Positions 18,498 through 45,880 of a stretch of 64,000 nucleotides of DNA are shown piece after piece (the stretch's first letter is position 1; each line of letters opens with the position of its first letter). Location of the stretch: positions 1,516 to 65,515 of the forward strand of contig JBDRMG010000008.1 of assembly GCA_043812495.1 (NCBI GenBank), in the 5' to 3' direction. Source of the DNA: Candidatus Omnitrophota bacterium (lineage in GTDB: Bacteria > Omnitrophota > Gorgyraeia > Zapsychrales > JBDRMG01). The notes beneath the pieces are model-generated. The model worked only from the letters and a program-made list of their open reading frames with translations. It was not told where the DNA came from and did no database searches. The translations under genes were made by a program, and so were the position numbers.

Positions 18498-18686
18498 TTT
18501 CGGATATTATTCTACTTTGCATAAGCAATGAAAATGATGGTATATGTCCTTCTTCGTCCGCCATTGTTTCGTTGGCGGACTCCGAAGGATTCCTCCATAG
18601 CCTTGGCGAAGGAGAACTTCGTAGAATATTCTCGTTGGAGTAATTTTCCGAAGCCTATACCGTTGCTTGCTATTGGTAAGGCGAAG
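18498..18686 (+). repeat. Structured intergenic repeat family 'R', copy 1 (contains an internal partial tandem duplication)
   Basis: Shares TATTCTACTTTGCATAA..CTTCGTAGAATATTCTC..CCGAAGCCT.TACC..GGCGAAGGAGAATA with 52932-53050. Copy 1 has an extra unit of about 70 nt. Confidence 0.8.
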
Positions 18687-18735
18687 GAGAATAGGATAAG
18701 TTCAAGTAATCTATGCAGATCCATAAGGGGGTTTT

Positions 18736-19483: not shown

Positions 19484-19570
19484 TCAATGAGGCCTGCGCT
19501 TATGGATGCCGCGCCCGCCATTGATTCAGTGGCGGGCGGGGCAGAACATAAGTGCATGGCCGAATTGACC
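19484..19570 (-). repeat. Modular palindromic intergenic element, copy B (minus orientation; inner hairpin carries the CCCGCCCGCCA/TGGCGGGCG module)
   Basis: The reverse complement reads GGTCAATTCGGCCATGCACTTATG-ttc-[hairpin]-tc-CATAAGCGCAGGCCTCATTGA. Confidence 0.8.
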
Positions 19571-19617
19571 CAGCACTAATTTTGTAATCCTATTGACATG
19601 CAAAAATTAGTGCTGGG
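19569..19617 (+). promoter_or_regulatory. Perfect 15 bp inverted repeat CCCAGCACTAATTTT/AAAATTAGTGCTGGG whose 19 nt loop contains TTGACA; candidate operator/promoter for the MarC-family gene
   Basis: Read directly. A related half-site motif, CGCTAAATTTT-aga-AAAATTAGCG, lies inside element copy C (44503-44525). Confidence 0.5.
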
Positions 19618-21800: not shown

Positions 21801-23663
21801 ATGAAATCTGCCAAAAATCAGAAAAATTTCTGGGTCATCTTTCTTGCTTTAACCATCCTTTTTTTCCTTATCAAATACCAGGGACCGCAGGTTATTCGCA
21901 CCCTCTATCAAAACAATTCCTTCCAGACCCTTGACAGACTCACCAGAGCCAAGGGCCCCCACTCCCTGGATTATTATTTGGGTCGGACGGATGATGTTTT
22001 GTTTGGTCCATTAAGTTCTCTGGTTTCCGGCCTAGTTCTTTTGGGTTTCTCTCTCGCGTATCTGCAAAAATCTCAAGCTTTAAAATTTGCACTCGCCATT
22101 TTCGCTTATCTTCTAATTACCCGCCCAGAAATTCTTTTTTACCCTCCTTATGGGGATGCTGTCACGGGAATATTTTTTGACGTGATATGGATTGCCCGGC
22201 ATTCGTTTGATTACATCGGGTTATTCCATCAAAATAATTTCGGCGTCGGCGCGCCCCAGGCGTATCCTATTTCTCTTTTTCCGAGTTTTCTGGCCTTCCT
22301 GATGCAAGTAACCCCAACAACAAAAACTTTTCTTATAACAACACACTTAGTTATTTTTTTGATGGCCGCAGGCGCCGTATCCTCTTTTCGAGAAGTCTTG
22401 CGAAAAACATTTGATGAAACGATTGCCATTTTTGGTTCGATGATTCTTTTGGCGCTTCCGCTTTTTCAATGCATGGCCGAATTGATCAACCAGGAAGTGG
22501 CCTGCCTTTTTTTTGCTATTCTTGCCGTTTACTTTCTGTTTCTAAGAAGTTTGGGAAGAGCCATGCTGTTTTCGGCCCTATCGTTGCTTGTTAAAGCGCC
22601 CGGGGGAATAACTTGTTTTGCGATGTCCTGGGCGGGCATCCTTATGTTTTTAACGGAAAAAGACAACAAGGGTCGTATGAAAACTTTGCTGTGGGCCATC
22701 GGAGCAGCTGTTTTTGTTATGACCATGTTTCTTATCAGGCGATGGCGGACCGGAGAACACATGATTGATACAACCAATGTGACGGGATTTCTCATTGGCT
22801 GGAAGAATATTTCAGGTTTAGTGACATTTTGGATTTTTCTCGCCGTGGTTGTCTTTTTTATCATTCAGAGCATTATGGAGTGGCGAAAACGACCTGACAA
22901 TCAAAGGAGACTTGCCTCTTTTATCCATGAGCATCAGCCTGTTTTGATTGTCGGTTCGGTTGTCATTCTTTGGTTTGGTCTTTATGTTAATTTCCTGGTG
23001 ATGATTGACCGATACAAGTTGTTATTGGCGCCGTTTTATATAGTTTTCTTGATGTATGTTTTTACGCCTGTCATTAAAGATCAGAAAAGAATTCAGAAGA
23101 TTTTAATGGCTGTCATTGTTATTTTTCTTCTTTCTTCCCACGGTCATATCGGACAAAGGACCTTCGCTAACGGCTATTACAGCGGTTTTGAACGCAGCCT
23201 GGAATACCGTAACAATCTCAAAATGGCCATGCGGGTTACAAAGGAGATCGAGAACAATTATTATCCGGGGTATACGATTGCCGCGCCGTTTGTCATTGCG
23301 CATATGCTTAATTTTTCCGAGATTGGTTATGTAGATCAACCGCTCAATGTCGTTATGTACGGGATGAACAGCCATTTTAAAGGCATTGATATCTTTAAAG
23401 GTTTAAGCCTCATGAATATTGAAAAGACCGTTTGGATTGGATTCCCGGATTATTTTCTCAATGAACAAATCCCATATCCGATCGGTCCCGGCGACCAGAT
23501 AATCAAAGAAATAGAAGTCGGGGATCGGAAAGTGGCACTTTTTAAAGGCGGTTATGCCATCGAAAGGATGAGATTGCTGGTTATGCTCAAGCAGAGAGGC
23601 GTGTTAGATAAATTTATCCAGAGAGCGAAAGAACATCAAGCAAAATCAAAAGGAACCCGATGA
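21801..23663 (+). CDS. Large polytopic membrane protein (about 13 TM), possibly a GT-C-type glycosyltransferase
   Basis: Hydrophobicity pattern only. The genomic context is sugar-nucleotide genes. The function call is weak. Confidence 0.45.
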   Translation: MKSAKNQKNFWVIFLALTILFFLIKYQGPQVIRTLYQNNSFQTLDRLTRAKGPHSLDYYLGRTDDVLFGPLSSLVSGLVLLGFSLAYLQKSQALKFALAIFAYLLITRPEILFYPPYGDAVTGIFFDVIWIARHSFDYIGLFHQNNFGVGAPQAYPISLFPSFLAFLMQVTPTTKTFLITTHLVIFLMAAGAVSSFREVLRKTFDETIAIFGSMILLALPLFQCMAELINQEVACLFFAILAVYFLFLRSLGRAMLFSALSLLVKAPGGITCFAMSWAGILMFLTEKDNKGRMKTLLWAIGAAVFVMTMFLIRRWRTGEHMIDTTNVTGFLIGWKNISGLVTFWIFLAVVVFFIIQSIMEWRKRPDNQRRLASFIHEHQPVLIVGSVVILWFGLYVNFLVMIDRYKLLLAPFYIVFLMYVFTPVIKDQKRIQKILMAVIVIFLLSSHGHIGQRTFANGYYSGFERSLEYRNNLKMAMRVTKEIENNYYPGYTIAAPFVIAHMLNFSEIGYVDQPLNVVMYGMNSHFKGIDIFKGLSLMNIEKTVWIGFPDYFLNEQIPYPIGPGDQIIKEIEVGDRKVALFKGGYAIERMRLLVMLKQRGVLDKFIQRAKEHQAKSKGTR

Positions 23664-24670
23664 ATAAAACCGAGAAGAAAATATGCGTGACGGGTGGGGC
23701 AGGTTTTATCGGCAGCCATTTGGTCGAACGATTGATCTTATCGAATCATCATGTCATTGTGGTCGATAACTTTTCAACAGGTCGTTATGAGAATTTACCA
23801 TTTCGGAAAAACTGTAAAAACCTATCAATCATCAATGCGGATGTGGCAGATCCTGACAAAATGATTAATTGTTTTAAGGGTGTAGAAATTGTTTTTCATT
23901 GCGCGGCGTTGGCCGATATTGTTCCTTCGATCGTTCATCCCGATCGTTATTACCGGTCCAACGTGACCGGGACTTTTTGCGTGGCTGAGGCCGCGAGAAA
24001 GGCGCAAGTCAAGAAATTTATTTATACAGCCAGCTCCTCTTGCTATGGGATCGCAACAAATTTACCGACGAAAGAGAGTGATCCGATCGATCCTCAATAT
24101 CCTTATGCGCTAACCAAATATTTGGGCGAGCAAATTACATTTCATTGGGGAAAGGTCTATGGACTGCCGGTTGTTTCTTTACGGCTTTTTAATGTGTACG
24201 GTCCGCGTTCGCGAACCTCCGGAACCTATGGCGCTGTGTCCGGAGTTTTTCTGGCTCAGAAACTGGCCGGAAAGCCCTATACGGTCGTGGGGGACGGAAC
24301 ACAAACGAGAGACTTTATCTATGTCTCTGATGTCGTCGAAGCATTTCTTGCGGCCGCTTTTTCTGATATCAAAAATGAAATTTTCAATGTTGGCTGCGGA
24401 AATCCTCAAAGCGTTAATACGCTTGTATCGCTTTTGGGCGGAGAGAAAGTCCATATTCCCAAACGGCCGGGTGAGCCTGATTGCACGTGGGCCGATATCG
24501 CTAAAATTAAAAATAAGCTGGATTGGCAACCCAAAATTTCTTTTGAGGAAGGTATCGGGAATATTCTTCAGCATATTCAGGATTGGCGCAGTGCTCCGGT
24601 TTGGACGCCGGAGAAAATCGAAGAAGCCACCAAAGATTGGTTTACATACCTAGCAAAGGAAAAGCCATGA
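23660..24670 (+). CDS. NAD-dependent sugar-nucleotide epimerase/dehydratase (SDR family)
   Basis: GGAGFIGSHL Rossmann motif. YxxxK (YALTKYLGE). ATGA overlap with the upstream stop. Confidence 0.8.
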   Translation: MNKTEKKICVTGGAGFIGSHLVERLILSNHHVIVVDNFSTGRYENLPFRKNCKNLSIINADVADPDKMINCFKGVEIVFHCAALADIVPSIVHPDRYYRSNVTGTFCVAEAARKAQVKKFIYTASSSCYGIATNLPTKESDPIDPQYPYALTKYLGEQITFHWGKVYGLPVVSLRLFNVYGPRSRTSGTYGAVSGVFLAQKLAGKPYTVVGDGTQTRDFIYVSDVVEAFLAAAFSDIKNEIFNVGCGNPQSVNTLVSLLGGEKVHIPKRPGEPDCTWADIAKIKNKLDWQPKISFEEGIGNILQHIQDWRSAPVWTPEKIEEATKDWFTYLAKEKP

Positions 24671-26202
24671 ATAAAGATGTCTTAAAAAAGATTAAAAAAA
24701 TTCAGCAGCTGGCGGATATCGTCGCCCATTGCAAACGGCAAGGCAAGAAAGTTGTTCACTGTCATGGGGTGTTTGATCTCTTGCACCCTGGGCACTTAAA
24801 ACATTTTGAGTCCGCCAAGAAAAAAGGCGATGTATTGGTTGTCACCGTGACGCCGGATGAGCATGTCAACCGGGGGCCGGGACGGCCGATTTTTAATCAG
24901 GATCTGCGCGCCGAAAGCATTGCCCATCTGGCCTGTGTCGATTTTGTGGCGATTAATGAATGGCCTACAGCGGTTGAGGCCATCAAAACCATACGGCCCG
25001 ATTTTTATATTAAGGGCAGCGAATACGCGATCAAAGAAGATGACGTCACGGGGAAAATCTTTGATGAAGAGGAAGCCGTCAAAAAAGTCGGCGGGCAATT
25101 GGATTTTACCGATGATATCACGTTCAGCTCCACATCGATTATCAATGATCTTTTGGCTCCCTATCCGGAGGAAGCCCAGGATTTCCTCAAAAGTCTAAAA
25201 AAACGCTACAGTACCGAAGATATTATACGTTATTTGCAGGGTGTTCGATCAGTTAAAGTGCTTGTGATCGGTGATGTGATTATCGACGAATATCATTATT
25301 GCGTCGGCATGGCCAAGACACAGAAAGACAATATCATCGCGACTCGTTTTATTTCAGCCGAACAGTTTGCCGGCGGCGTCTTGGCGGCGGCCAATCATAT
25401 TGCCGGTTTTTGTAAAGACGTAACGCTTTTAAGCTGTATCGGGACAGGGGAGAATTACCAACCCTTTATTACCGATCGCCTGAAACCCAACATACAGACA
25501 AAGTTTTATCAACGCAAAGATGCCCCGACGGTCGTTAAACGCCGTTTTGTAGATAAGAATTTCTTAACAAAACTTTTTGAAATATGTTATTTGGACGATC
25601 TGACGATGCTGCCCACTTCTGTAGAAAATAAAATCTGCGATTATCTTCGCAAGAATCTCAAGAAATTCGACATGGTTCTTGTGGCGGATTTTGGCCACGG
25701 AATGATCACGCCTAAGATCATTAAAATTTTATGCGAAAAGGCAAAGTTTTTAGCTCTCAATGTCCAGACCAATAGCTCCAATATCGGGTTTAATCTTGTG
25801 CCGAAATTTCCTCGTGCCGATTATATCTGTATTGATGAACCTGAATTGCGCTTTGCCTGCCATGACCGGTTTTCCAAACCGGAAGATTTGGTTCTGAAGA
25901 TCACAAAAAAAATGAAATGCGATCACATGATCATTACACGGGGACACCGGGGCGCGCTGACGTATTCCAAGAAAAAAGGATTTTCGCAGATCCCTGTTTT
26001 TTCAAAAGAAGTCATCGACCGCATTGGGGCCGGAGACGCTTTTTTCTCGATTACTTCGCCATGTATTTTTAAGGGTGTGCCTACAGAGGTTGTGGGCGTT
26101 ATCGGAAATGCGGTAGGAGCCATGAAAGTTCTTATCGTGGGTAATCGGGCCAGCGTTGAACCGGCCCCGTTACTCAAATACATAGGGACATTATTGAAAT
26201 GA
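24666..26202 (+). CDS. Bifunctional heptose 1-phosphate adenylyltransferase (N-terminal) / PfkB-family heptose 7-phosphate kinase (C-terminal), HldE-like with swapped domain order
   Basis: N-terminal HxGH nucleotidyltransferase motif (VVHCHGVFDLLHPGHLKHF). C-terminal ribokinase-like domain with DRIGAGDAF. Start ATG 24666 overlaps the epimerase stop. Confidence 0.7.
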
Positions 26203-26768
26203 ATTATTTTAAAGAGCTCATCGATTTATGTCAGCATATTACGATCAATGATCAGAAGGGGAGGCCCTTGTTGATCGAAAAGGCCTTTGACAGAACAGTC
26301 CAGATGATTATGGACCACAAAAATAAAGGCAAAGTTTTTTTGATAGGAAACGGCGGCAGCGCGGCCATTGCCAGCCACACCATGACGGATTTTATCCGTA
26401 ATGCGAAGATTCCGGCCATGGCTTTTAATGACGCCGCTCTTTTGACATGCATGTCCAATGATTATGGATACGAAAAGGTTTACGAAAAGCCCATTGAAGT
26501 TGTCGTCAAAAGAGGAGACGTGCTGATTGCGATCAGTAGCTCGGGAAAATCGAAAAATATTATCCGGGCCGTCAGAGCCGCACAGAAGAATAAGGCGCGC
26601 GTTATTACTCTTTCGGGGTTCAACCGGAACAACTATTTGAGCAAGCTCGGGGAAATCAACTTCTACGTTCCTTCCAGCTCTTACGGGTTCGTCGAGTCCA
26701 TACACTTTCTCATCTGCCACTGCATTGTTGATACTTTGATAGCGAAAAAGAAAAGAAAAAATGGATAA
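26199..26768 (+). CDS. gmhA: Phosphoheptose isomerase (SIS domain)
   Basis: LIGNGGSAAIASHTMTDF and AISSSGKSKNI SIS motifs. Confidence 0.8.
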   Translation: MNYFKELIDLCQHITINDQKGRPLLIEKAFDRTVQMIMDHKNKGKVFLIGNGGSAAIASHTMTDFIRNAKIPAMAFNDAALLTCMSNDYGYEKVYEKPIEVVVKRGDVLIAISSSGKSKNIIRAVRAAQKNKARVITLSGFNRNNYLSKLGEINFYVPSSSYGFVESIHFLICHCIVDTLIAKKKRKNG

Positions 26769-27828
26769 GTTCAGAATCGACAGCCATAAGCTCACGTATC
26801 ATGTCCAGCGCGTCCATGATTGGTTGAATGGAAAAAACATTTATCCGGTGTATATAGAAATCAGCCCTACGGGCGCGTGCAACCACCGCTGTATTTTCTG
26901 CGGTTTAGACTTTATGGAATACAAAGCCCGGTCGCTTGATACGGCCCTATTGAAAGAACGTTTAAAAGAATTGGGCGAACTTGGCGTCAAAAGCATCATG
27001 TACGCCGGCGAAGGTGAGCCTTTCTTGCATCGAGACATCGTCGAGATCATTCAGCATACGAAAAATTCCGGAATAGATGTCGCGGTCACAACCAACGGCG
27101 TTTTATTTTCAAAAGAAAAAGCCGAAAACTCACTTGGGTATATGGAATGGATTAAGATCGGCATCGATGCCGGAACTAAAGAAACCTACGCGAAAATTCA
27201 TCGATGCCGAGAACAAGACTTCGATCGCCTCATTGAAAATATGAAAGAGGCTGTCCGGATTAAACGCAAAAGCGGTTACTCTTGCGCGATCGGCGCTCAG
27301 GCTTTGCTTTTACCCGACAATCAAAAGGAGATGGTGGGTCTCGCCAAGCTTATCAAAGATATTGGATTAGACTATCTTGTCGTCAAACCCTATTCTCAGC
27401 ATCCGCAGAGCAAAACCAAACAATATAGTGAGATTAAATATGACGACTATGGCGGGCTCGAAGAACAATTATCTCAGCTTAAGTCGGACAAGTTTCAAGT
27501 GATCGTGCGTATCCATACCATGAGAAAATGGGATGATAAGAAAAAAGAATATGAATGCTGTCTCGCACTTCCGTTTTGGTCGTATATTGATGCGGGGGGA
27601 AATGTCTGGGGCTGCAGCGTATATTTAGGGGATGAACGCTTCTTTTACGGCAATATCAATGAGCAGTCTTTTAAAGAAATATGGGAATCACAAAAACGTG
27701 TTGATTCACTACGCTTTGTTCAAGAGAAGCTCAACGCCTCAACGTGCCGAGTGAATTGCCGCATGGATGAAGTGAATCGTTATTTGTGGGAGCTAAAAAA
27801 CCCTCCCGACCATGTGAATTTTATATAA
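26761..27828 (+). CDS. Radical SAM enzyme with C-terminal Cys-rich auxiliary-cluster (SPASM/twitch-like) domain; paralog of 34473-35771
   Basis: CNHRCIFC (Cx3Cx2C). C-terminal Cys pairs (ECCLALP...GCSVY...STCRVNCRMD). Shared terminal motif KNPPDHVNFI. Confidence 0.75.
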   Translation: MDKFRIDSHKLTYHVQRVHDWLNGKNIYPVYIEISPTGACNHRCIFCGLDFMEYKARSLDTALLKERLKELGELGVKSIMYAGEGEPFLHRDIVEIIQHTKNSGIDVAVTTNGVLFSKEKAENSLGYMEWIKIGIDAGTKETYAKIHRCREQDFDRLIENMKEAVRIKRKSGYSCAIGAQALLLPDNQKEMVGLAKLIKDIGLDYLVVKPYSQHPQSKTKQYSEIKYDDYGGLEEQLSQLKSDKFQVIVRIHTMRKWDDKKKEYECCLALPFWSYIDAGGNVWGCSVYLGDERFFYGNINEQSFKEIWESQKRVDSLRFVQEKLNASTCRVNCRMDEVNRYLWELKNPPDHVNFI

Positions 27829-27844
27829 GAGTAAATGAAAATTG

Positions 27845-27992
27845 TTTTGGTTCTGGTGAGTTGGTAACGTTGGAGTCTTGTTGTGGTTATGGTTTTAGGT
27901 GTCGTTTAGAACAGAAATAATGATTTTAACCAAAACAACAACTAAAACGACAACGAAACACCAACGTTACCGATACCAAAAACGAAAACAAC
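27845..27992. repeat. Long imperfect palindrome: a GT-rich arm of about 63 nt and an AC-rich arm of about 65 nt around a 20 nt centre
   Basis: The arms are about 75% reverse-complementary and share a GGTAACGTTGG/CCAACGTTACC core. Strongly strand-asymmetric in composition. Confidence 0.7.
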
Positions 27993-28024
27993 TTTATAGG
28001 TTTTTGGAAAACCCTTGAATTTGA

Positions 28025-28543
28025 TTGGAGGAAAAAATGAAGAGAGCTGTCATTATTACAGCCACAAATTTTCAGGATGAGGAATTTACCTATCCGTATT
28101 ATCGATTACTGGAAGAGGGTTTTGCGGTTGATGTGGCCACGCCGGATAAAGCGCCGGTTTGCGGCAAATACGGCGTCCCGGCCCGACCCAACAAAGATAC
28201 AAAAGAATTGAAGGTCTCCGATTACGATCTTGTCATTCTTCCCGGCGGATTTGAAGCTCCGGATCGCCTGCGTATTCGTCCGGAAGTTTTGGCCTTCGTC
28301 AAAGAGATGTTTGAGACCAAAAAGATTGTGGCGGCCATCTGCCACGGACCCTGGATTTGTATTTCCGCGGGAATCCTCAAAGGGAAGAAGGCAACGGGGT
28401 ATATGTCCATCGCCGATGATATCAAAAATGCCGGCGCGACTTATATGGAAGAGGATGTTGTGATTGACGGAAATCTGATTACATCTCCGCACTATCGCAA
28501 TAACGGCGATTTTATGAAAGCCGTTCTCAAAACCATCAAATAA
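28025..28543 (+). CDS. DJ-1/PfpI-family protein (class I glutamine amidotransferase-like fold)
   Basis: Nucleophile elbow AAICHGPW. Confidence 0.8.
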   Translation: MEEKMKRAVIITATNFQDEEFTYPYYRLLEEGFAVDVATPDKAPVCGKYGVPARPNKDTKELKVSDYDLVILPGGFEAPDRLRIRPEVLAFVKEMFETKKIVAAICHGPWICISAGILKGKKATGYMSIADDIKNAGATYMEEDVVIDGNLITSPHYRNNGDFMKAVLKTIK

Positions 28544-28546
28544 ATG

Positions 28547-28700
28547 AGCCCCAAGGGAATTTCTATCGATGGGGCTCACCCTGAGCAAGCCCAAAGGGCG
28601 AGCCGAAGGGTCTCTTACTAGGGATCCTTCGACTCCGCTCCGACTAGGGTCGGAGCTTCGCTCAGGATTTCGGGGTCGAAACACCACGACCCCTCAAATA
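28547..28700 (+). other. GC-rich multi-hairpin intergenic segment (candidate structured leader or ncRNA)
   Basis: Nested stems: GAGCCCC/GGGGCTC; CCTGAGCAAGC/GCTTCGCTCAGG; CCGAC-tag-GGTCGG; GGGGTCG/CGACCCC. Local GC is much higher than in the flanks. Confidence 0.4.
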
Positions 28701-28701
28701 A

Positions 28702-31380
28702 ATGATCTATTTGTTATCTAATAAAGGGACGAAAACAAAGTACCAAGCCAAGAAGCGCAAGGTCAAGGATTCGCGCGTTGATGCGTTCGACGACACCCAA
28801 ATCCCGCCCTTTAGGGCGGGGAAACGGGCGCCGCTCAGCATCAACCCTGAGCAAATCCCGGCCTTTAGGCCGGGGTGCGTCGAACGGGTTGATTACTCCA
28901 AGGTGATTGTCAAAAAACCCTGGGGCTATGAGTATTTGGTTTTTCAAAATGATTATGTGGCGATATGGATGCTGCAAATTATTCCGCAGCGTCGAACATC
29001 CATGCACTGCCACCCAGCCAAAAAGACCGGCCTCATTGTGTTATCCGGAAAAGCCAAACTCCATCATGTGGACGGCGCCCTTGAGCTCGACACCCTAGAT
29101 GGCGTCATGATCGACCCCGGAGTATTTCATTGCACCGAGGCCTTCAATCCTTATCCTTTAACACCTCAATCGGAAAACGGGATCTGGGTTATGGAAATTG
29201 AATCACCACCCATGAAAAGCGATTTGATCCGCCTGGACGATGCTTATGGCCGCAAAAATGAATCCTACGAAGGCCAAAAACATATGGTGCATGAACCGGC
29301 CAAGCGGCTTGAGTTTTCTGTTCCATCAAAGACAAAAATTAGCCATAAGAAATTTTTTAATTGTGATTTCAGTATTCGCCAAGGGTCCTTTAAGACAGAG
29401 CGTCCGCGCGACCATGCCCTTATTTCTGTGATCGGGAAAAATGCACGCGCCAAAAGCAATAATCCTTACTTAAAAATCGGCGCTTTAACAACATTCAAGG
29501 AGTTTGAGAATAAGACACGCCAGGAGGATTTAGGTTCTTATACTTTTCTTGTGATCGAAAGAAAAGAGCAGGTGATGAAGGTTGCGGATTATGTTTTTTC
29601 ATCCATCGCCGAGCTTGGCATCAAACAGGTTTTTGCTGTTTCAGGCGGGGGCGCGATGCATCTTGTGGATTCGCTCGGCCGCCATCCCAAATTGGAATAT
29701 ATTGCAACCTATCATGAGCAAGCGGCCGCGATGGCGGCTGAAGCTTACGCTCGCCTGTCTGATACACCAGGGGCTGCACTTGTGACATCAGGCCCCGGCG
29801 GAACAAATACCATCACCGGTGTTTGTGGGGCGTGGATTGATTCGATCCCTACGATTTTTATCTCGGGGCAGGTGACAACAGATACGCTTTTGCGGAAAAT
29901 GGGCCTGCGTCAATTCGGCATCCAGGAGGCGGATATTGTCAGTCTTGTAAAGCCAATCACAAAATATGCCGTAACGGTGACCGATCCAAAAACAATTAAA
30001 TATCATGTGCAAAAAGCTATTCATCTGGCGACGAGCGGCCGGCCCGGTCCGGTGTGGTTAGATATTCCGCTTGATGTGCAAAGTAAACTCCTTAACATTG
30101 ATGAACTGAAATCCTTTACGCCAAAGAAAGACACGCTGTCTTTGCAAGGCAAACAACTCAAAAAAGAAACCGCCAAAGCGCTGGCCCTTTTGAAAAAAGC
30201 CAAGCGGCCCGTTCTTATTAGCGGCTACGGTGTCCGCCTGGCTAAGGCAACAAATGAATTTCAAAAGCTTTTGACATTACTCAATATTCCCCTTGTGTCA
30301 TCGTGGACGTCGAGCGATCTTGTAGATACAAAACATCGGCTTTATGTGGGTCGAGGCGGCATTATGGGTGAGAGAGCCGCGAATTTTGCCGTGCAGAATG
30401 CCGATGTGCTTTTGATTATTGGCTCAAGGATGTCCATTCCTCAAGTAGGCTATAATTATCGCGCCTTTGCCCGCGAAGCCAAAAAGATTGTTGTGGATAT
30501 CGACAGTGTTGAATTAAAAAAGAAATCTCTGAAACCCGATCTTGCGATTCGTACCGATGCCAAAGATTTTATTGCGGAGTTAACACGTCAGTTTCAAAGT
30601 ACGCGCGTAAAACTTGGAAACAACCAATGGCGCGCAAAATGCCAAGGATGGAAAAAACGCTATCCGGTCGTTTTACCGGAGTATCGACAAAATAAAAAAG
30701 GTGTGAACTCATTTTATTTTATCGATGTCCTTTCGAAAAAATTAAAAAAGGACGCCATTGTGGTCACCGACATGGGAACAAGTTTTACCTGCACCATGCA
30801 GACCTTTAAGGTGAAAAAGGGCCAGCGTCTTTTTACCTCAAGCGGACACGCCTCCATGGGATTCGGACTTCCCGGGGCGATCGGGGCTTGCTTCGGCAGC
30901 GGTCGAAAAAAGGTCATTTGCGTGAGCGGAGACGGCGGTTTACAGATGAATATTCAGGAATTACAAACCCTTATTCATTATCGCCTGCCCGTCATTTTAT
31001 TCGTCTTGAACAACCAAGGATATCTGACGATCAAGCTGATGCAGCAAAATCATTTTGGGCGATATGTGGGTTCGGATGCCGGAAGCGGTGTGAGTTTTCC
31101 TGATATCGTCAAAGTGGCGCGGGCCTATGGTATCCGTGCGACAAAGATCAGTAATCAAAAACAATTACGCGGAAAGATCGACAGAATATTGGCCGAACGC
31201 GGACCGTTTGTCTGCGAAATTGTTATGCCCGAAGATCAACCGTTGATTCCAAGGGTCTCATCGCTCAAGAAACCAGACGGCACGATTATCTCACGGCCCC
31301 TGGAGGATCTCTACCCGTTTTTGAGCCGCGAAGAATTTGCGAAAAATATGATAGTCAAACCTTTTGAACCACTCAAATGA
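28702..31380 (+). CDS. Fusion protein: N-terminal cupin domain and C-terminal thiamine-diphosphate-dependent enzyme (acetolactate-synthase/YerE-like fold)
   Basis: Cupin core (WGYEYLVF...MHCHP...GLIVLSGKAKL). TPP-enzyme N-terminal domain (VFAVSGGGAMHLVDSL). TPP-binding GDGG...NN motif (VSGDGGLQMNIQELQT...VLNNQGY). The real start is probably near 28880, not 28702. Confidence 0.7.
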   Translation: MIYLLSNKGTKTKYQAKKRKVKDSRVDAFDDTQIPPFRAGKRAPLSINPEQIPAFRPGCVERVDYSKVIVKKPWGYEYLVFQNDYVAIWMLQIIPQRRTSMHCHPAKKTGLIVLSGKAKLHHVDGALELDTLDGVMIDPGVFHCTEAFNPYPLTPQSENGIWVMEIESPPMKSDLIRLDDAYGRKNESYEGQKHMVHEPAKRLEFSVPSKTKISHKKFFNCDFSIRQGSFKTERPRDHALISVIGKNARAKSNNPYLKIGALTTFKEFENKTRQEDLGSYTFLVIERKEQVMKVADYVFSSIAELGIKQVFAVSGGGAMHLVDSLGRHPKLEYIATYHEQAAAMAAEAYARLSDTPGAALVTSGPGGTNTITGVCGAWIDSIPTIFISGQVTTDTLLRKMGLRQFGIQEADIVSLVKPITKYAVTVTDPKTIKYHVQKAIHLATSGRPGPVWLDIPLDVQSKLLNIDELKSFTPKKDTLSLQGKQLKKETAKALALLKKAKRPVLISGYGVRLAKATNEFQKLLTLLNIPLVSSWTSSDLVDTKHRLYVGRGGIMGERAANFAVQNADVLLIIGSRMSIPQVGYNYRAFAREAKKIVVDIDSVELKKKSLKPDLAIRTDAKDFIAELTRQFQSTRVKLGNNQWRAKCQGWKKRYPVVLPEYRQNKKGVNSFYFIDVLSKKLKKDAIVVTDMGTSFTCTMQTFKVKKGQRLFTSSGHASMGFGLPGAIGACFGSGRKKVICVSGDGGLQMNIQELQTLIHYRLPVILFVLNNQGYLTIKLMQQNHFGRYVGSDAGSGVSFPDIVKVARAYGIRATKISNQKQLRGKIDRILAERGPFVCEIVMPEDQPLIPRVSSLKKPDGTIISRPLEDLYPFLSREEFAKNMIVKPFEPLK
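28797..28875 (+). repeat. Two tandem 24 nt hairpin repeats CAAATCCCG(C/G)CCTTTAGG(G/C)CGGGG separated by 30 nt, upstream of the cupin domain
   Basis: Read directly. They lie inside the annotated 5' extension of the 28702 ORF and are probably leader sequence rather than coding. Confidence 0.6.
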
Positions 31381-32945
31381 GACACTCTATGAAATATAAG
31401 AAACGAAAATTCGATAGTGTTTGTTTGGTGATGAACTTAAAGTCGGACCAGGTCGCGATTGCCAAAGAAGATATTGCGTCCGGCAGCATTCTTATTCATG
31501 AGGGCCGGACCGTCAAAATAAAAAAAGATATTAAAAAGGGCCATCGCTTGGCTATGAAAGAAATTCCCAAAGGAGAGTATGTACGGCAATACGGCCATCC
31601 TTTTGGATGCTCCAAGGGTATTCAAAGCGGAGAGCCCATTACGATTGCGAATATCAAAAACGTTTTGCCGAGACAAAATCTAAAGGATTTTAAGAAACCC
31701 GCACAAACACGATACCAAAAGGATCTTGTGAAAAAGGCCTTTGCGGGGTATGTAAGAAAAAACGGTGCGGTTGGAACACGCAATTATTATTTGATTGTTC
31801 CCACGTCAATGTGCGCGAGTGAAACAGCGCTTCAAGTGGCGCTCACGTTACAGGCGGATAAGCGAATTTCAAAAAAGCATTCCTCGTTTGACGGAATTGT
31901 GGCGATTCCTCATACAGAAGGGTGCGGGTGCGATTCAGGGTTGTCGATCGAGAGGCTCCTGCGTGTTCTCAAAACTTATATCGCGCATCCCAATGTCGGC
32001 GGTTGTCTCATCATGGATTTGGGATGCGAGCAGACCAATTATGAAAAGGTTCACCCTTACCTTAAAAAACTTGTTAGCCAAAAGATCAAGCCGATTGATT
32101 GGGTCAGTATTGAGGAGTCCGGCGGGATTACGGCCGCGCGAAAAAAAGCCGAAACGCTTATTCGAAAACGTCTCCCCCAGGTTATACGACAAAAGCGCCA
32201 GGCGTGTTCTCTCGGAAAATTAATTGTCGGAACCGAATGCGGCGCCTCCGATACGTTTTCCGGAATCACGGCCAATCCCCTGATTGGGTATGCGGTCGAT
32301 CAAATCATATACGCCAAAGGCTCAGCCATTCTCTCGGAGATTCCGGAAATGGTGGGAACGTTTGACATGTTATGGCCGCGCTTTCGCAGCCTGAAAGCGG
32401 CGCGTAAATTTCAGAAGATCATGAGTTGGTATGTGACATTGGCCAAAAAGCTGGGAACAACACTTGAGGCCAATTTGGTCCCCAAAAATGTCGAAGTAGG
32501 GCTCATCAATAATTATATCAAAAGTTTGGGAGCCGTGATCAAAGGAGGCACAACGGTTATAGAAGATGTTCTTGAGTATGCAGAACCCCTAACGAAACGA
32601 GGCCTTCATATTATGCAAGGTCCGGGCAATGACCTTGAATCCGTTACGGGAATCGTTGCTTCGGGGGCTAACCTCGTATGTTTCTCGACCGGCCAAGGGA
32701 CACCGACCGGTAGCGCGATTTGTCCTGTCATCAAAATTGCATCGACGAATTCTATTTTTAAAAAACTTTCCAAGGATATTGATTTCAATGCAGGTCAATT
32801 GCTTCAAACAAAACCAAATTTGGAAACTTTAGGGTGCGAGTTGCTTTCTTTGATGATTAAAGTCGCCTCCGGTCAGAAGACATGCAGTGAAAAATTAGGA
32901 CAACGACAATTTCAAATATGGACAGCCGGCAAGTTGCCGCTGTAA
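31377..32945 (+). CDS. SAF-domain sugar-acid dehydratase family protein (UxaA/GarD-like)
   Basis: N-terminal SAF-like beta-clip (DQVAIAKEDIASGSIL...GHRLAMKEI). C-terminal dehydratase-like domain. The exact substrate cannot be assigned. Confidence 0.55.
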   Translation: MRHSMKYKKRKFDSVCLVMNLKSDQVAIAKEDIASGSILIHEGRTVKIKKDIKKGHRLAMKEIPKGEYVRQYGHPFGCSKGIQSGEPITIANIKNVLPRQNLKDFKKPAQTRYQKDLVKKAFAGYVRKNGAVGTRNYYLIVPTSMCASETALQVALTLQADKRISKKHSSFDGIVAIPHTEGCGCDSGLSIERLLRVLKTYIAHPNVGGCLIMDLGCEQTNYEKVHPYLKKLVSQKIKPIDWVSIEESGGITAARKKAETLIRKRLPQVIRQKRQACSLGKLIVGTECGASDTFSGITANPLIGYAVDQIIYAKGSAILSEIPEMVGTFDMLWPRFRSLKAARKFQKIMSWYVTLAKKLGTTLEANLVPKNVEVGLINNYIKSLGAVIKGGTTVIEDVLEYAEPLTKRGLHIMQGPGNDLESVTGIVASGANLVCFSTGQGTPTGSAICPVIKIASTNSIFKKLSKDIDFNAGQLLQTKPNLETLGCELLSLMIKVASGQKTCSEKLGQRQFQIWTAGKLPL

Positions 32946-33047
32946 CGGAAGAAGGAATCAATACAAAGGTCATCACTCCTCTGAGCTTCTCAAATTGAAT
33001 CATCTTTTCAGAGAGAGTTCACCAAACTTAAAATACCTTTTCTATTC

Positions 33048-34457
33048 ATGAAAATATTGTTCACGAACTCACCTTTACATTTCAGCCACGGACATACGTT
33101 TACTCAACCGGATTGGCAAACCCTCGTCTTGCCGCTTTTAGCGGCGATTGCCGGTGATGAACATGAAATCAAACTTTTTGATAACAACGCATTATTTTTT
33201 GAATCCAACAGAATTCTCTGTGAAATAAAAGAGATGTGTCCTGATGTTGTCGGATTTAGTATCATTGCGGCCAGAGATGTATTCAATACCCTCCAAATCA
33301 TCCAAGAGGTTCGCAAAGAGTATCCAGAATTAAAACTCATTGCAGGCGGACAAGCCGCAACATTTTACGGTCGATTGTTGCTTGAGAGCGGAATTGATTT
33401 TGTAGTTCACGGTGAAGGAGAGATAACGCTCAAAGAACTCATTGGGGCCATTTCTGAGAATGCGCCTGATTATTCAGGGATCCAGGGGATTTCTTATTGT
33501 CGTGAAGGAAATGTTTATAAGACCGCGGATCGTTCCAAGATCAAAAATCTTGATGATTCTCCTTTTCCGGCTATCCATCTGATGCCGCTTCGAAAGTCAA
33601 AATGGTTTCCCGGACGCTTTACCGGTTCAATTGAGACATCACGTGGGTGTCCGTTTGATTGCAATTTTTGCGCCATTACGTCCTTTTGGGACAGAACGTT
33701 CCGCGAAAAATCAAATGAGCGCATTCTCGATGAGATGAAATTTCTTGTTGAAAGCGGACGGTCTCATTTTTATATGGCGGATGATAACTTCGGGATGAAC
33801 ATCAAAAAGCATATTGATCTCTTTGAAAGGATTTTGAAAGAGGGCCTCGATATCCGATTCTTTGCGCAGATGAGAACCGATACTATCGGCCTGCATCCCG
33901 ACATGGTTTCGATCGCGGCCCGGGCAGGGCTATATGGTGCGTTAATCGGTTTTGACACCTATGATCCGGAGACATTTCACCATGTGACAAAAGCAGGAAG
34001 CGTTGAATTAAATATACAGTGCGCAGAGGTGATGAGGAAAAACAAGATCATGATTTTTGGTTCGCATATTTACGGTCTTCCGACGCAGAAAAAACCGCTC
34101 GATTTTGCAAAGACATTTTGGATGGGGCGCAGAAACTCAGATTTGTTTCGCATGCCGCGATTTTCTTTGCTTCCCGGAACAAAAGCGTATGGTCAGATGA
34201 TCACTCAAGAGATGATTGACAGCAAAACCGGCAGCGGAGATTTTAGGTTATTTATTCGACCCGCAAAAGAACAAAAGAAATTTCAGCGCTGGTATGCGCT
34301 CTTTAATTTCCTGAATATATTCCTTCCGGATGAGATTCTCAAAGCCTTTTTTCATCCGAATCGCAATATCAGAAAAATAAAACAGTATGGATATATCAGC
34401 ATTGTGCGGCATAATTTTTATCGGATGTTAAGAACGCTGTGTTTATGCGATATTTAA
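33048..34457 (+). CDS. Cobalamin-binding radical SAM protein (class B, COG1032-like)
   Basis: N-terminal B12-binding Rossmann-like segment. SRGCPFDCNFCAI Cx3Cx2C motif. Confidence 0.75.
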   Translation: MKILFTNSPLHFSHGHTFTQPDWQTLVLPLLAAIAGDEHEIKLFDNNALFFESNRILCEIKEMCPDVVGFSIIAARDVFNTLQIIQEVRKEYPELKLIAGGQAATFYGRLLLESGIDFVVHGEGEITLKELIGAISENAPDYSGIQGISYCREGNVYKTADRSKIKNLDDSPFPAIHLMPLRKSKWFPGRFTGSIETSRGCPFDCNFCAITSFWDRTFREKSNERILDEMKFLVESGRSHFYMADDNFGMNIKKHIDLFERILKEGLDIRFFAQMRTDTIGLHPDMVSIAARAGLYGALIGFDTYDPETFHHVTKAGSVELNIQCAEVMRKNKIMIFGSHIYGLPTQKKPLDFAKTFWMGRRNSDLFRMPRFSLLPGTKAYGQMITQEMIDSKTGSGDFRLFIRPAKEQKKFQRWYALFNFLNIFLPDEILKAFFHPNRNIRKIKQYGYISIVRHNFYRMLRTLCLCDI

Positions 34458-34472
34458 TAAACGGAGAAATCA

Positions 34473-35771
34473 ATGGCACAAAAGAAATCAAAAGCCCCTA
34501 CGCATAAAAAGGGAAAGATCGTCAAAATTCCTCAAAAGATGAAAACCCTCAAGCACGGCGGGCATGTTCTTCGTACAGGCAAACAAATTGTTGACCGCGC
34601 CAAGCTTAATCAAATCAAAGCTAAGTCGAAAACAAGCGCCAAGCAGCCCAACCAATATACGGGCCATACATTTCTCAATAAACCTTTACGATTCCGTTTG
34701 GACAGCCATAAGTTGTTGCATCATCTGGATCGGGTGCTCGCCTGGCAGCGTGGCGAACGGATTACTCCGATCCATATCGACATGGGATTGACAAAATTCT
34801 GTAACGTCGGTTGCATATACTGTATCGGCGTTACGCAGATTATGACTAAAGGAGAGCTGATCGCACGTGAGGCTTTGCTTCGATTAATCGATGATTGCGC
34901 GCGCCTTGGGGTGCGCAGCCTTGCCTTTATCGGCGACGGTGAGCCAACGCTGAACCCCGCTATGTATGATGCCGTTGTGCGCGCAAAGAGTTTAGGGATC
35001 GATGTCGGCATGGCCACCAATGGCATTCTCATCAAAATGGACCGTGCGCACGATCTTTTACGCGATTTGACGTTCTTGCGGATTAATTTAAGCGCGGCTG
35101 AACCCAAGAGTTTTGAAAGAATTCATCAAGCGCCGGGCCGGCAGCTCGACCTTCTGATGGACAAGCTAAAGGCCATGGTGAAAATACGCAAAGAAAACGG
35201 ATACACCTGCACTCTTGGGATTCAGATGGTCTTAATACCGGAAAATTTTGATCAGATCATTAAGCTCACCGAGCTCGGCCGGGACATCGGTGTTGATTAT
35301 TTTCAGATTAAACAATGCTCCGATACGGAATATAAAGAAATCGGCGTTGATTACGGCCAATATCGTAAGGCCGAAAAAGATCTTAAAAGAGCCGAACAGC
35401 TAAGCACAGACAGTTATTTTGTTCAGGTCAAATGGAACAAAATTAACATTGCAGGTGAGACAAATGTGTATAAAGGCGGAATACGCAAATACGATATCTG
35501 CTATGGCACGCCGTTTCTCGGTCAAATCAGCGGGAACGGAAAAGTTTATCCATGTGGCCCATTTTTCTCAAAGGAACGTTTCTTAATGGGCGATATTCAC
35601 AAACAGTCTTATTATGATATCGTCAAAAGCGATCGCTATTGGCAAGTGCACCAGGATATCATCGACAACGTTGACGTTCACTGCGACTGCACCGTGGGAT
35701 GCCGGCAGGACTATATCAATAAATTTTTGTGGGATATTAAAAATCCTCCACAACATGTCAATTTCATTTAG
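34473..35771 (+). CDS. Radical SAM enzyme with C-terminal auxiliary-cluster domain and Lys-rich N-terminal extension; paralog of 26761-27828
   Basis: CNVGCIYC. C-terminal CDCTVGC. Shared motifs DSHKL.HH..RV..W and KNPPQHVNFI. Confidence 0.75.
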   Translation: MAQKKSKAPTHKKGKIVKIPQKMKTLKHGGHVLRTGKQIVDRAKLNQIKAKSKTSAKQPNQYTGHTFLNKPLRFRLDSHKLLHHLDRVLAWQRGERITPIHIDMGLTKFCNVGCIYCIGVTQIMTKGELIAREALLRLIDDCARLGVRSLAFIGDGEPTLNPAMYDAVVRAKSLGIDVGMATNGILIKMDRAHDLLRDLTFLRINLSAAEPKSFERIHQAPGRQLDLLMDKLKAMVKIRKENGYTCTLGIQMVLIPENFDQIIKLTELGRDIGVDYFQIKQCSDTEYKEIGVDYGQYRKAEKDLKRAEQLSTDSYFVQVKWNKINIAGETNVYKGGIRKYDICYGTPFLGQISGNGKVYPCGPFFSKERFLMGDIHKQSYYDIVKSDRYWQVHQDIIDNVDVHCDCTVGCRQDYINKFLWDIKNPPQHVNFI

Positions 35772-35780
35772 CGCACAATA

Positions 35781-37361
35781 ATGGTTTACCGGAACCTAGA
35801 TAATATCCAAACCACAGTTCGCACACCAAAAGTTCTTCTTTTAAATCCACCTGACGATGAGCATTCCTATAAGTTGTTTCGTGCATCGTTTCCGCTAGGA
35901 TTATGTTACCTGGGTACCTATCTTAAAAAAGAGAAATATCAGGTAAAGATTGTTGATGCGAAGGTAGGAAACATTAAGAGAGTCCCATTAGAAAAAGAAG
36001 GAATGGTTAGGGTTGGACTTTCCTTAAATGAGATAGAAAATATTATTAATGATTTTTCACCAGATGTTCTTGGCCTTTCCTGTATTTTTCACACAAATTT
36101 TAATCCTACTTTAGATATCGCGAAATTGGCAAAAACCAAATGCCATATTCCTTATGTTGTAGCAGGAGGGAGCTATGCCTCGGTGGTTCCAAAGAAGATC
36201 ATGGAGTCTCCCTATATTGATTATTTAGTTCTTGGAGAAGGGGAGGTAACATTTGAGAAATTATTACAAAAGTTGTTTAATCCCACAGGCAATCAAGAGT
36301 TGGGCGATTTAGATGGAGTCGTATTGAGGGATAACGACGGCAAAGTTTGTGTAAAAAATAGGACTGAATACATCTCTTCAGATGAGTTTTTTACCCCCAA
36401 TAGAGATTTTCTCCCAGTTGAAAAGTATATAAAGTTTCGAAGCCCTCACAATATCTTATCCCGAGGGCATCGGGCGTTAGAAGTTATCACTTCACGAGGG
36501 TGTAATGCGCGTTGCACATTTTGTTCAGCCCCGTTGTTATGGGGTAAATTCAGAATGAGAAGCGTAAAGGGTATTATCGATGAATTGAAATTTCTCAAAG
36601 AGAAGTACCATATTGATGAGGTTCAGTTCATTGATGATAATCTGACCTTCGATAAAAAAAGAGCGGAAGATCTCTTCCAGCGTATGATAGATGACAAATT
36701 GAACCTTAAGTGGTGCGCTCCCAATGGCATTGCGATACATACTCTCGATGAAAATTTGATACGCTTAATGAAAGAAAGCGGCTGTTATTTGGTTACATTG
36801 GCCATTGAAAGTGGGAGTCAACGCGTACTGACTGAATTAATAAAGAAGCCTTTGTTGTTGGAGAAGGTACACGCAACAGTTAAGCTGTTAAAGAAATACA
36901 AGCTCGCCGCAGAAGCTTTCTTTGTTATCGGAATGCCAGGGGAGACATTTGAAGAGATTAAAAAAACATTTGATCTTGCATTTAAGCTGGGTATATTCAG
37001 GGCACACTTCAGCTATATTACTCCTATTCCGTCGACACCAGTTTACAAGACATATCTAGAACTGAAAAGGCATAATGCATCTGATAGCAGCACTACTGAT
37101 CTTATTGATGAAAGCTGTTTCGATTTTAGATTTCCTGCGATATCAACGAAAGAATGGACTAACAAGCAGCTTAAAAGATATACTTCTATTCTGTCATTTA
37201 AATTTTATTTGAAATTCTTAATTTTAAAACCGCATATTTTTATTAAAGAAGTCAGCCTTATTATTAGCCGTCCAAAGCTCCTTTTGGGATTAATGGTTAT
37301 TTTTAAGGATGTTATTTTAGGAAATCTATTATCTAAAGAAAAGGTCACTGTCAATGAATAA
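35781..37361 (+). CDS. Cobalamin-binding radical SAM protein (class B)
   Basis: B12-binding N-terminal domain. SRGCNARCTFCSA motif. Confidence 0.75.
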   Translation: MVYRNLDNIQTTVRTPKVLLLNPPDDEHSYKLFRASFPLGLCYLGTYLKKEKYQVKIVDAKVGNIKRVPLEKEGMVRVGLSLNEIENIINDFSPDVLGLSCIFHTNFNPTLDIAKLAKTKCHIPYVVAGGSYASVVPKKIMESPYIDYLVLGEGEVTFEKLLQKLFNPTGNQELGDLDGVVLRDNDGKVCVKNRTEYISSDEFFTPNRDFLPVEKYIKFRSPHNILSRGHRALEVITSRGCNARCTFCSAPLLWGKFRMRSVKGIIDELKFLKEKYHIDEVQFIDDNLTFDKKRAEDLFQRMIDDKLNLKWCAPNGIAIHTLDENLIRLMKESGCYLVTLAIESGSQRVLTELIKKPLLLEKVHATVKLLKKYKLAAEAFFVIGMPGETFEEIKKTFDLAFKLGIFRAHFSYITPIPSTPVYKTYLELKRHNASDSSTTDLIDESCFDFRFPAISTKEWTNKQLKRYTSILSFKFYLKFLILKPHIFIKEVSLIISRPKLLLGLMVIFKDVILGNLLSKEKVTVNE

Positions 37362-38148
37362 TACAAACATAAAAGTTTCCGTCATTACGCCAGCTTTGAA
37401 TGAAGAAAAGAATATTAGATTTACGATTGATCGCATTCTGGATGTTTTTGAAAGATGCAATATTTCTGGTGAGATCATTGTCGTCAATGATGGCAGTACG
37501 GATAGGACAGAGGAGCTGGTGGAGGATTTTATCCAAAGCGACTCCCGGGTCAAGGTACTCAAACACGAAACACCGCAAGGCATGGGGGCCTCCTTCTGGG
37601 ATGGCTTCGACCATGCTAAGGGTGAAATCATTGTCGTGATTCCCGGCGATAACGAGAATGATCCGTGGGAAATCCTGCGGTATTACTCTTTGTTAGAGCA
37701 TGTCGATATCGTTATTCCCTTTATTTTTAATCGTGAAGTGAGGCCTTTTTTGCGCAACATCCTTTCTTTGCTTTTTCGCTTGATTATCAATTCAACTTTT
37801 GTTGTCAATTTTAATTACACGAATGGGACAATACTTTACCGGAAGGATATTATTCAGGATGTAAAGTATCGAAGCAGCAGCTTTTTCTTTCAGACAGACA
37901 TTTTGATACGACTTGTTAAAAAAGGATATTTATTTGCCGAAGTTCCCTTTCGTTTAGACATCAGAGAGCAAGGCCGCTCAAAGGCTGTTTCTTTTCCTTC
38001 TCTGTTGCAGGTGATGAAGGGGTATTTTCGCTTAATCCGCGATCTTTATTTTGCCAAAGAAAGTAAGATTAAGGTACGTTTCTCACAAAAATCTGCAACA
38101 GCCAAAAGGCGACAAAATAATTTGATCCAACAGAATCGTAATCAATGA
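37354..38148 (+). CDS. Family 2 glycosyltransferase
   Basis: VSVITPALNEEKNI...VVNDGSTDRTEEL...D-x-D-like GDNEND region. Confidence 0.8.
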   Translation: MNNTNIKVSVITPALNEEKNIRFTIDRILDVFERCNISGEIIVVNDGSTDRTEELVEDFIQSDSRVKVLKHETPQGMGASFWDGFDHAKGEIIVVIPGDNENDPWEILRYYSLLEHVDIVIPFIFNREVRPFLRNILSLLFRLIINSTFVVNFNYTNGTILYRKDIIQDVKYRSSSFFFQTDILIRLVKKGYLFAEVPFRLDIREQGRSKAVSFPSLLQVMKGYFRLIRDLYFAKESKIKVRFSQKSATAKRRQNNLIQQNRNQ

Positions 38149-40705: not shown

Positions 40706-40765
40706 TCATTTGTCAGCAATAAATTTCAACCAAATCTGCCGGGTTCTCGGTCCGTCAAACTCCAT
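40706..40765 (-). pseudogene. Diverged duplicate of the last 19 codons of yjbQ (encodes MEFDGPRTRQIWLKFIADK* versus the true MEFDGPRTREVWLKFISD*)
   Basis: About 85% nucleotide identity to 40842-40895. The two copies are separated by the 73 nt hairpin element. Confidence 0.7.
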
Positions 40766-40838: not shown

Positions 40839-41234
40839 TCAATCTGAAATAAATTTTAACCAAACTTCTCTGGTTCTCGGTCCGTCAAACTCCATCAAAA
40901 AGATCCCTTGCCATGTTCCCAACTGCAGATTTCCGTTCTCCACGATAAAAGTCTGAGAAAAACCCATGAGGCTGCCCTTGATATGGGCATCGGCGTTATC
41001 TTCCGCATGATTAAATCCGAAATCTTGCGGCACGGTTTTCTTCAAGAAATAATGGATGTCCCGCTTGACATCGGGATCCGCGTTCTCATTGACCGTTAAG
41101 GCTGCCGTGGTATGAGGAGAGTAGACGACTAAAATCCCTGAGTCGCATTTTTCCTTGCGAAGATAGTCTTTGATGTCAGGTGTTAAGTCAATAATTTGCT
41201 CTCTTTGGGTTGTTGGAACGTTGAACTTATACAT
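40839..41234 (-). CDS. YjbQ/UPF0047-family protein
   Basis: Conserved UPF0047 segments (GILVVYSPHTTAALTVNEN...DAHIKGSLMG...LGTWQGIFLMEFDGPR). Confidence 0.8.
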   Translation of the reverse strand: MYKFNVPTTQREQIIDLTPDIKDYLRKEKCDSGILVVYSPHTTAALTVNENADPDVKRDIHYFLKKTVPQDFGFNHAEDNADAHIKGSLMGFSQTFIVENGNLQLGTWQGIFLMEFDGPRTREVWLKFISD

Positions 41235-44339: not shown

Positions 44340-44405
44340 GTTTTTATTGATTACAATGGATCGGAAGGATAATAAGAGAATTATCATCATTTAATTTGCT
44401 TACTT

Positions 44406-45839: not shown

Positions 45840-45880
45840 TTAATAAAGAAAAGGAAATATTATAGCTGCATTTGCTTAAT

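Follow-up and report, generated by a model that had tools for sequence, protein, structure and literature searches.

The locus described here raises the question of why a metagenome-assembled Candidatus Omnitrophota genome carries, between two genes of a sugar-pathway operon, a long palindrome with one GT-rich and one AC-rich arm. An earlier note on this DNA had reported the palindrome and had suggested a decayed MITE, a long hairpin RNA or processing site, or a replication or recombination structure. We analysed the element within the window, that is the whole stretch of 64,000 nucleotides (64 kb) under study, and in comparison with orthologous loci. The palindrome and its two neighbouring genes comprise the following features.

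26761-27828, + strand: upstream gene, a radical SAM enzyme with a SPASM domain (domain annotation and homology)
27838-27913, no strand assigned: left arm, GT-rich, resembling a degenerate GTT or hexamer repeat and pairing with the right arm
27863-27873, no strand assigned: perfect 11-nt core GGTAACGTTGG, which includes the self-complementary hexamer AACGTT
27914-27920, no strand assigned: minimal loop of 7 nt between the innermost arm ends
27921-27995, no strand assigned: right arm, AC-rich, with a period-6 autocorrelation of 0.57
27961-27971, no strand assigned: perfect 11-nt core CCAACGTTACC, partner of 27863-27873
28037-28543, + strand: downstream gene, a DJ-1/PfpI family protein of 168 aa (domain annotation; identical to P0121)

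The spacer from the radical SAM gene to the DJ-1 gene (27829-28036) holds a single long imperfect inverted repeat, at the site where the earlier note had placed it. In a gapped alignment of the left arm with the reverse complement of the right arm (27838-27913 versus 27921-27995), 56 of the 77 aligned positions match (73%), with an identity of 77% over the outer 60 columns and of 59% over the inner 17. The repeat search returned an ungapped inverted repeat of 51 nt (27863-27913 and 27921-27971; 73% complementary, 7 nt apart), and the outer pairing of 27838-27852 with 27981-27995 continues in register. The centre of the palindrome, approximately 27894-27940, is weakly paired and allows alternative pairing registers. 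The arms had been drawn 20 nt apart, which is correct for the segments chosen; the pairing extends further, up to the 7-nt loop.

The element is 158 nt long and AT-rich (~36% GC). The pairing of a GT-rich with an AC-rich arm was confirmed, with 84% G+T in 27845-27907 and 86% A+C in 27928-27992, and so was the core shared by both arms. A composition unlike the rest of the window had been claimed as well. Scanning in 40-nt windows, we found this to be true for the AC-rich stretch of the right arm, the sole one of at least 85% in the 64-kb window, but not for the GT-rich stretch, as GT-rich stretches of at least 85% are present in five other regions. The 18 mismatches between the arms comprise 7 transitions and 11 transversions.

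Because GT-only and AC-only sequences are ~45-50% complementary from composition alone, each arm was shuffled separately. The observed arm alignment score was 32, compared to 11.8 ± 2.2 for arm-wise mononucleotide shuffles and 14.4 ± 2.4 for arm-wise dinucleotide-preserving shuffles; 0 of 2000 reached the observed score in either set. Triplet-preserving shuffles, which served as the control for GTT/AAC-like periodicity, yielded 12.6-13.5 ± 2.3, with 0 of 2000 reaching 32 in each frame. These shuffles rule out (GTT)n/(AAC)n periodicity as the source of the palindrome. The earlier note had left the decision to dinucleotide-preserving controls; since the alignment score lay above all 2000 of them, the palindrome is real, and the long imperfect hairpin is statistically supported. 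Apart from the palindrome at 27838-27995, the 64-kb window contains no inverted repeat of 30 nt or more within 300 nt, and the only match of the spacer in a blastn search against the window was the spacer itself in reverse. Other GT/AC palindromes had been thought worth looking for; the 64-kb window contains no second copy.

According to the earlier note, only the RNA of the + strand would pair. This strand asymmetry is an illusion and no indicator of a strand-specific RNA. The minimum free energy of the hairpin is -53.2 kcal/mol on the + strand and -52.4 kcal/mol on the - strand; folding of both strands thus supported a stable hairpin but not a difference between the strands. Compared with arm-wise shuffles, the + strand hairpin has a z-score of -4.4, and the folding z-scores of the 209-nt spacer are -4.65 on the + and -7.34 on the - strand. 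Mismatches between the arms that give G-U pairs number 4 in the + RNA and 3 in the - RNA, without wobble bias on either strand. As the reverse complement of such a palindrome is a palindrome of the same type, the 5′ arm is GU-rich and the 3′ arm AC-rich on both strands, and the pattern itself arises because the inverted copy of any GT-rich tract is AC-rich. Since the strands fold alike and the mismatches lack a G-U bias, nothing suggests that an RNA of one polarity has been under selection. Folded as single-stranded DNA, the hairpin is weak (-30.8 kcal/mol) and has many mismatches and bulges.

The genes around the element are all located on the + strand, in the order epimerase, HldE-like cytidylyltransferase/kinase, GmhA-like SIS isomerase, SPASM radical SAM enzyme, DJ-1/PfpI, cupin-TPP enzyme, UxaA-like dehydratase, two B12-radical SAM enzymes, a second SPASM radical SAM enzyme and a glycosyltransferase. 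The operon leaves little space between its genes: they overlap or are separated by at most 15 nt, save three larger gaps of 208 nt (the hairpin spacer), 158 nt (directly after DJ-1) and 102 nt. Sequence scans detected no sigma-70-like promoter within 27000-29000, nor did a terminator-like site coincide with the hairpin. An intrinsic (Rho-independent) terminator was also rejected on the basis of its features: the stem is AT-rich, AUAGG precedes the first T run and the scan gave no terminator-like site. Given that the neighbouring genes all run in the same direction and that the surroundings of the spacer showed neither promoter-like nor terminator-like sites, the hairpin is probably co-transcribed in the operon mRNA. 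Two small candidate ORFs overlap the spacer.

27786-27920, + strand: candidate ORF of 44 aa, starting at a GTG within the radical SAM gene and lacking an evident ribosome-binding site
27926-27991, - strand: candidate ORF of 21 aa, antisense

The region 23660-38148 of the window and the loci L001-L006 and L016-L023 represent an uncharacterised sugar-modification gene cluster, in which the module after the radical SAM gene varies (transketolase genes versus HAD-DJ-1-TPP). Homologues of the radical SAM enzyme with 60-68% identity occur in Omnitrophota, anammox Planctomycetota (Brocadiaceae, Scalindua), Elusimicrobiota and Thermodesulfovibrionales.

The contigs with homologues of the two flanking genes were then compared. 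In five related lineages (L003, L004/L006, L016, L021/L022/L023) a HAD hydrolase gene of ~650 nt is located directly upstream of DJ-1, and in the four of them where the radical SAM gene is also present, it sits between radical SAM and DJ-1. The order in L003, L004, L006 and L021-L023 is radical SAM, HAD hydrolase (214-239 aa as called), DJ-1, TPP enzyme, UxaA-like, while L016-L020 lack the radical SAM gene and show the order aminotransferase, HAD, DJ-1, TPP enzyme. The gap from HAD to DJ-1 is 0-31 nt in every HAD-bearing locus compared. In L001 and L002, transketolase genes follow the radical SAM gene after 12-41 nt. A counterpart of the hairpin spacer after the radical SAM gene was found in none of the orthologous loci L001-L006 and L021-L023; in L016-L020, HAD is directly upstream of DJ-1 with no hairpin spacer. 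A tblastn search revealed no HAD homologue anywhere in the 64-kb window (best E = 0.48), and a relocation of the gene within the window was rejected on the same result.

At the DNA level, the similarity to L004/L006 stops at the radical SAM stop codon and restarts at ~28011, ~26 nt before the DJ-1 ATG. This defines two further features.

27829-28010, + strand: lineage-specific segment of 182 nt that interrupts the homology to relatives and occupies the place of the body of their ~650-nt HAD gene
28011-28036, + strand: probable remnant (~25 nt) of the HAD 3′ end, which includes the GGAGG ribosome-binding site of DJ-1

Here, ACCCTTGAATTTGATTGGAGG aligns with ACCTTTGTATTTGAA-GGAG, the last HAD codons (...PLYLKEL and the stop) in L004 and L006, which are followed by the DJ-1 start. 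Tested by dinucleotide shuffles, the 40 nt upstream of the DJ-1 ATG gave p = 0.002-0.004 in comparison with L004/L006, and shuffles for more distant loci gave no significant similarity. Because the homology ends at the radical SAM stop and resumes at ~28011, the 182-nt segment, 158 nt of which are palindrome, takes the place of ~620 nt of HAD coding sequence. Judged from these alignments, the hairpin occupies the exact place of a missing, otherwise conserved HAD hydrolase gene, a point that the earlier note did not contain.

We searched for the source of the 182 nt. The HAD 5′ end is T/G-rich and encodes the FDFDGVL motif, and an ATG 6 nt past the radical SAM stop together with an LV..ES..GFR resemblance seen by eye had given an initial hint that the left arm is a decayed HAD 5′ end. 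This origin was rejected for lack of detectable descent. An HMM of 5 HAD orthologues returned only negative bit scores with the six-frame translation of the spacer, neither the left arm (27835-27913) nor the reverse-complemented right arm (27921-27999) showed similarity to HAD DNA, and DNA alignments to five HAD 5′ ends were not above shuffles (p = 0.6-0.99). In L021, a non-coding spacer of ~175 nt (1674-1850) separates the radical SAM and HAD genes and holds short hairpins in which the AC-rich half precedes the GT-rich one; homology of our element to this spacer was not found.

Rfam gave no match at gathering thresholds. Below threshold, long-hairpin plant miRNA-precursor models matched on both strands with 24-32 bits compared to gathering scores of 117-195, for example 32 bits versus a gathering score of 144. 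Searches by blastn against phage and plasmid collections produced chance matches only. The pattern GGTAACGTTGG-N70-100-CCAACGTTACC occurred at 1 genome locus, 8 metagenome loci and in 0 viral contigs, and upon inspection these matches were dismissed as homologous elements, being unrelated plain palindromes or inverted 9-12-mer repeat arrays. One of them, in Bacteroidales UBA6207 (L007, 3623-3735), is a hairpin with a GT-rich and an AC-rich arm (-78.9 kcal/mol) made of GGTGGTGACGTT 12-mer repeats and their inverse; it is located inside an open frame of 224 aa that has no Pfam match. It came up only through the shared 11-nt core, and we see no tie between it and the window element. Four low-GC (29%) metagenome contigs (L012 395-506, L013 2193-2296, L014 3829-3923, L015 4098-4209) contain inverted GGTAACGTT-like 9-mer arrays flanking an AT-rich centre, within ORFs of 967-1016 aa (L012, L014, L015) or 627 aa (L013). 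A BT4734-like N-terminal domain was detected in the L012 and L014 ORFs, the two that were scanned, and the arrays may represent a replication origin that lies within the gene of an initiator or primase.

The explanation we favour, with a probability of about one half, is that the palindrome is a lineage-specific insertion/deletion scar in an Omnitrophota sugar-pathway operon. The ancestral order would have been radical SAM, HAD hydrolase, DJ-1, TPP enzyme and UxaA-like dehydratase with spacers near zero. In this lineage the HAD gene body would then have been lost, and its place would have been taken by ~180 nt of non-coding filler that consists almost wholly of a single long, imperfect inverted repeat. 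The filler most likely originated when a GT-rich tract of low complexity was duplicated in inverted orientation, by fold-back or template switching; the arms would subsequently have diverged to ~73-77% identity. Such a duplication automatically places a GT-rich arm ahead of an AC-rich one on either strand. If transcribed within the operon mRNA, the element would form a ~55-bp stem that separates the cistrons of radical SAM and DJ-1. RNase III could plausibly act on such a stem, but the stem is presumably a by-product and not a selected device. The absence of a counterpart in relatives, together with the equal folding of both strands, argues for such an incidental structure. Three points speak against the scar: the best homologues found, 68% (radical SAM) and 86% (DJ-1) identical, are too distant to reveal the ancestral spacer and the template-switch step, the left arm is not detectably HAD-derived, and ~55 pairs have been kept despite the divergence, so that the pairing could be maintained.

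The window harbours several other repeats. Between the DJ-1 stop and the TPP-enzyme ATG there is a GC-rich, hairpin-packed segment of 158 bp (28533-28705; -87.5 kcal/mol, z = -9.1) flanked by a 12-15-nt direct repeat CC[A/C]TCAAATAAATGA. When the 158-bp insert and one repeat copy are removed, the sequence reads ...ATCAAATAA/ATGATC (the slash marks the junction), so that the stop codon abuts the start codon. From its sequence, this segment, which has no Rfam match, looks like an insertion with target duplication. That the genome has taken up other recent insertions in its spacers, of which this segment is an example, also favours the scar. A dispersed family is present in four copies in the 64 kb, in both orientations (2800-2874, 19484-19574, 44394-44479, 45870-45982). 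Its copies form nested GC-rich hairpins in which an outer stem TCAATGAGGCCTGCRCTTATGGAT...AACATAAGTGCATGGCCGAATTGA surrounds a variable inner hairpin such as CCCGCCCGCCATTGATTCAGTGGCGGGCGGGG; the family resembles REP or MITE elements and is unrelated to the GT/AC hairpin. A second dispersed direct-repeat pair (18507-18693 and 52930-53046) is 84-88% identical over ~120 nt, and a 48-nt direct repeat occurs at 40718-40765 and 40848-40895, with its copies 130 nt apart. A near-perfect palindrome of 37 nt (7357-7393) is located just upstream of a tRNA gene (7444-7527), and a full-length tmRNA gene was found at 9354-9756 (170 bits). The hairpin spacer was unrelated to the dispersed repeat families of the window.

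These repeats bear on the possibility that the palindrome is a decayed non-autonomous foldback or MITE-like element, inserted at the radical SAM/HAD boundary in association with the HAD deletion. We consider this doubtful, even though a foldback-decay origin gains some plausibility because the genome accumulates short hairpin-forming elements in its spacers: several such dispersed repeats exist in the same genome, and an insertion with flanking direct repeats is located directly downstream of DJ-1. Furthermore, the radical SAM 3′ end is a boundary of variable gene content (transketolase genes versus HAD and DJ-1). The decayed MITE of the earlier note holds as far as the terminal inverted repeats are concerned, since the entire element is an inverted repeat (56/77), but it fails on copy number and ends. 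It is present once in 64 kb and shows no similarity to the other repeat families there, its arms are only ~75% matched, and no convincing target-site duplication exists at its ends. The flanks read ...TTTATATAAGAGTAAATG/AAAATTG...CAACTTT/ATAGGTTTTT, with slashes marking the element ends, and the sole sequence common to both flanks is the hexamer TTTATA, which on the left is located 12 nt outside the arm. The core pattern identified no related element in the genome, metagenome and viral collections searched, and the blastn matches in phages and plasmids were due to chance. An inverted duplication is favoured over foldback decay because the stem is continuous to the centre, the element is single-copy and lacks a target-site duplication, and the arms are of low complexity. 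Alternatively, the stem-loop may have been recruited or kept after the HAD loss for a function between the cistrons, as an RNase III site, an mRNA-stabilising barrier or for the tuning of DJ-1 translation. RNase III can act on a stem of ~55 bp, so the length of this stem would be sufficient. The RNA structure is stable (-53 kcal/mol; z = -4.4 for the hairpin with arm-wise shuffles, z = -4.65 for the spacer), the stem-loop resides inside a co-directional operon without promoter-like or terminator-like sites in or around the spacer, and the AC-rich arm is ~45-110 nt upstream of the DJ-1 ribosome-binding site. However, the minus strand folds equally well, the mismatch spectrum is without wobble bias, no Rfam family matches, and relatives possess no counterpart, having either no spacer or the HAD gene at this place. 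A conserved structured cis-regulatory RNA found no support in the orthologous loci, which contain no homologous spacer. We regard a function of this kind as rather improbable. Still less likely, in our view, is an uncharacterised Omnitrophota foldback element or structured RNA, seen here in its first copy and selected as a processing or stability hairpin.

A role at the DNA level is very unlikely, whether as a cruciform, as a palindrome bound by a protein, as a site of replication or recombination or as an attC-like site of an integron. The palindromic architecture and the perfect 11-bp core with AACGTT are compatible with it, and the 11-mer core pattern did pick up the inverted GGTAACGTT-like arrays, in ORFs of ~1000 aa in L012, L014 and L015. 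Against this, the element is positioned inside an operon and carries a single core copy in each arm instead of an iteron array (64-kb window), its single-stranded DNA fold reaches just -30.8 kcal/mol with many bulges, GC skew does not switch apart from the arms themselves, and no replication-initiator, integrase or recombinase gene is located nearby in the annotated region of 17.9-38 kb. The replication or recombination structure proposed earlier is thus disfavoured by both the operon position and the weak DNA hairpin. An integron attC was rejected in addition: the arms read TGGTAAC and GTTACCG, not RYYYAAC and GTTRRRY, and the context is a conserved biosynthetic operon. Hardly credible at all is a small cysteine-rich RiPP precursor peptide as the substrate of the adjacent SPASM radical SAM enzyme. 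The SPASM domain of that enzyme and the CC and CxC motifs in the two candidate ORFs might suggest it, but the richness in cysteine, glycine, valine and phenylalanine is a direct outcome of GT-only sequence. Moreover, the + strand ORF shows no evident ribosome-binding site, its counterpart on the - strand runs antisense, no peptide gene follows the radical SAM gene in the six orthologous loci examined, and this gene belongs to a conserved sugar-modification cluster and not to a RiPP cluster. The spacer contains no credible small ORF, and the RiPP reading is disfavoured already on these grounds.

Under the insertion/deletion scar that we prefer, the hairpin would mark the exact site at which a HAD phosphatase gene was lost from an uncharacterised sugar-modification operon. 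The operon affected is widespread, occurring in Omnitrophota, anammox Planctomycetota and other lineages. The hairpin itself matters little beyond the Candidatus Omnitrophota genome studied here, and nothing shows a function. Given closer genomes, the site could exemplify the natural birth of a hairpin at a deletion junction. If a selected hairpin were true instead, it might separate the expression of the heptose-activation genes located upstream from that of the DJ-1, TPP-enzyme and dehydratase genes after the phosphatase loss.

Several known systems invite comparison. Like REP/BIME, ERIC, Correia, RUP and BOX sequences, MITEs and foldback elements, the palindrome is short, non-coding and located between co-transcribed genes, where an mRNA hairpin is possible. 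All these families are multi-copy, usually with defined termini or target-site duplications, and REP is GC-rich, whereas the window element is single-copy in 64 kb, has ~36% GC and no target-site duplication, and is without relatives in the collections searched. With the RNase III or stabilising stems of polycistronic bacterial mRNAs it shares a long imperfect double-stranded stem between cistrons; known stems of this type recur in relatives, and their effect on the RNA has been demonstrated, whereas the one in the window is absent in relatives and predicted only. A further parallel is provided by template switching, which has been reported to create hairpins de novo (PMC8794818, PMC10710096, PMC5453318). 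The likeness of the window element to template-switch quasipalindromes lies in a reverse-complement copy beside its source with a stem continuous to the loop, in the restriction to a single lineage and in a site that also carries a deletion. Documented events are usually short and proven with a close outgroup, whereas the arms in the window measure ~76 nt and are ~25% diverged, and the relatives compared lack the whole spacer. We class the element as an instance of a familiar type of feature, a quasipalindrome that is specific to one lineage and located at a rearrangement junction.
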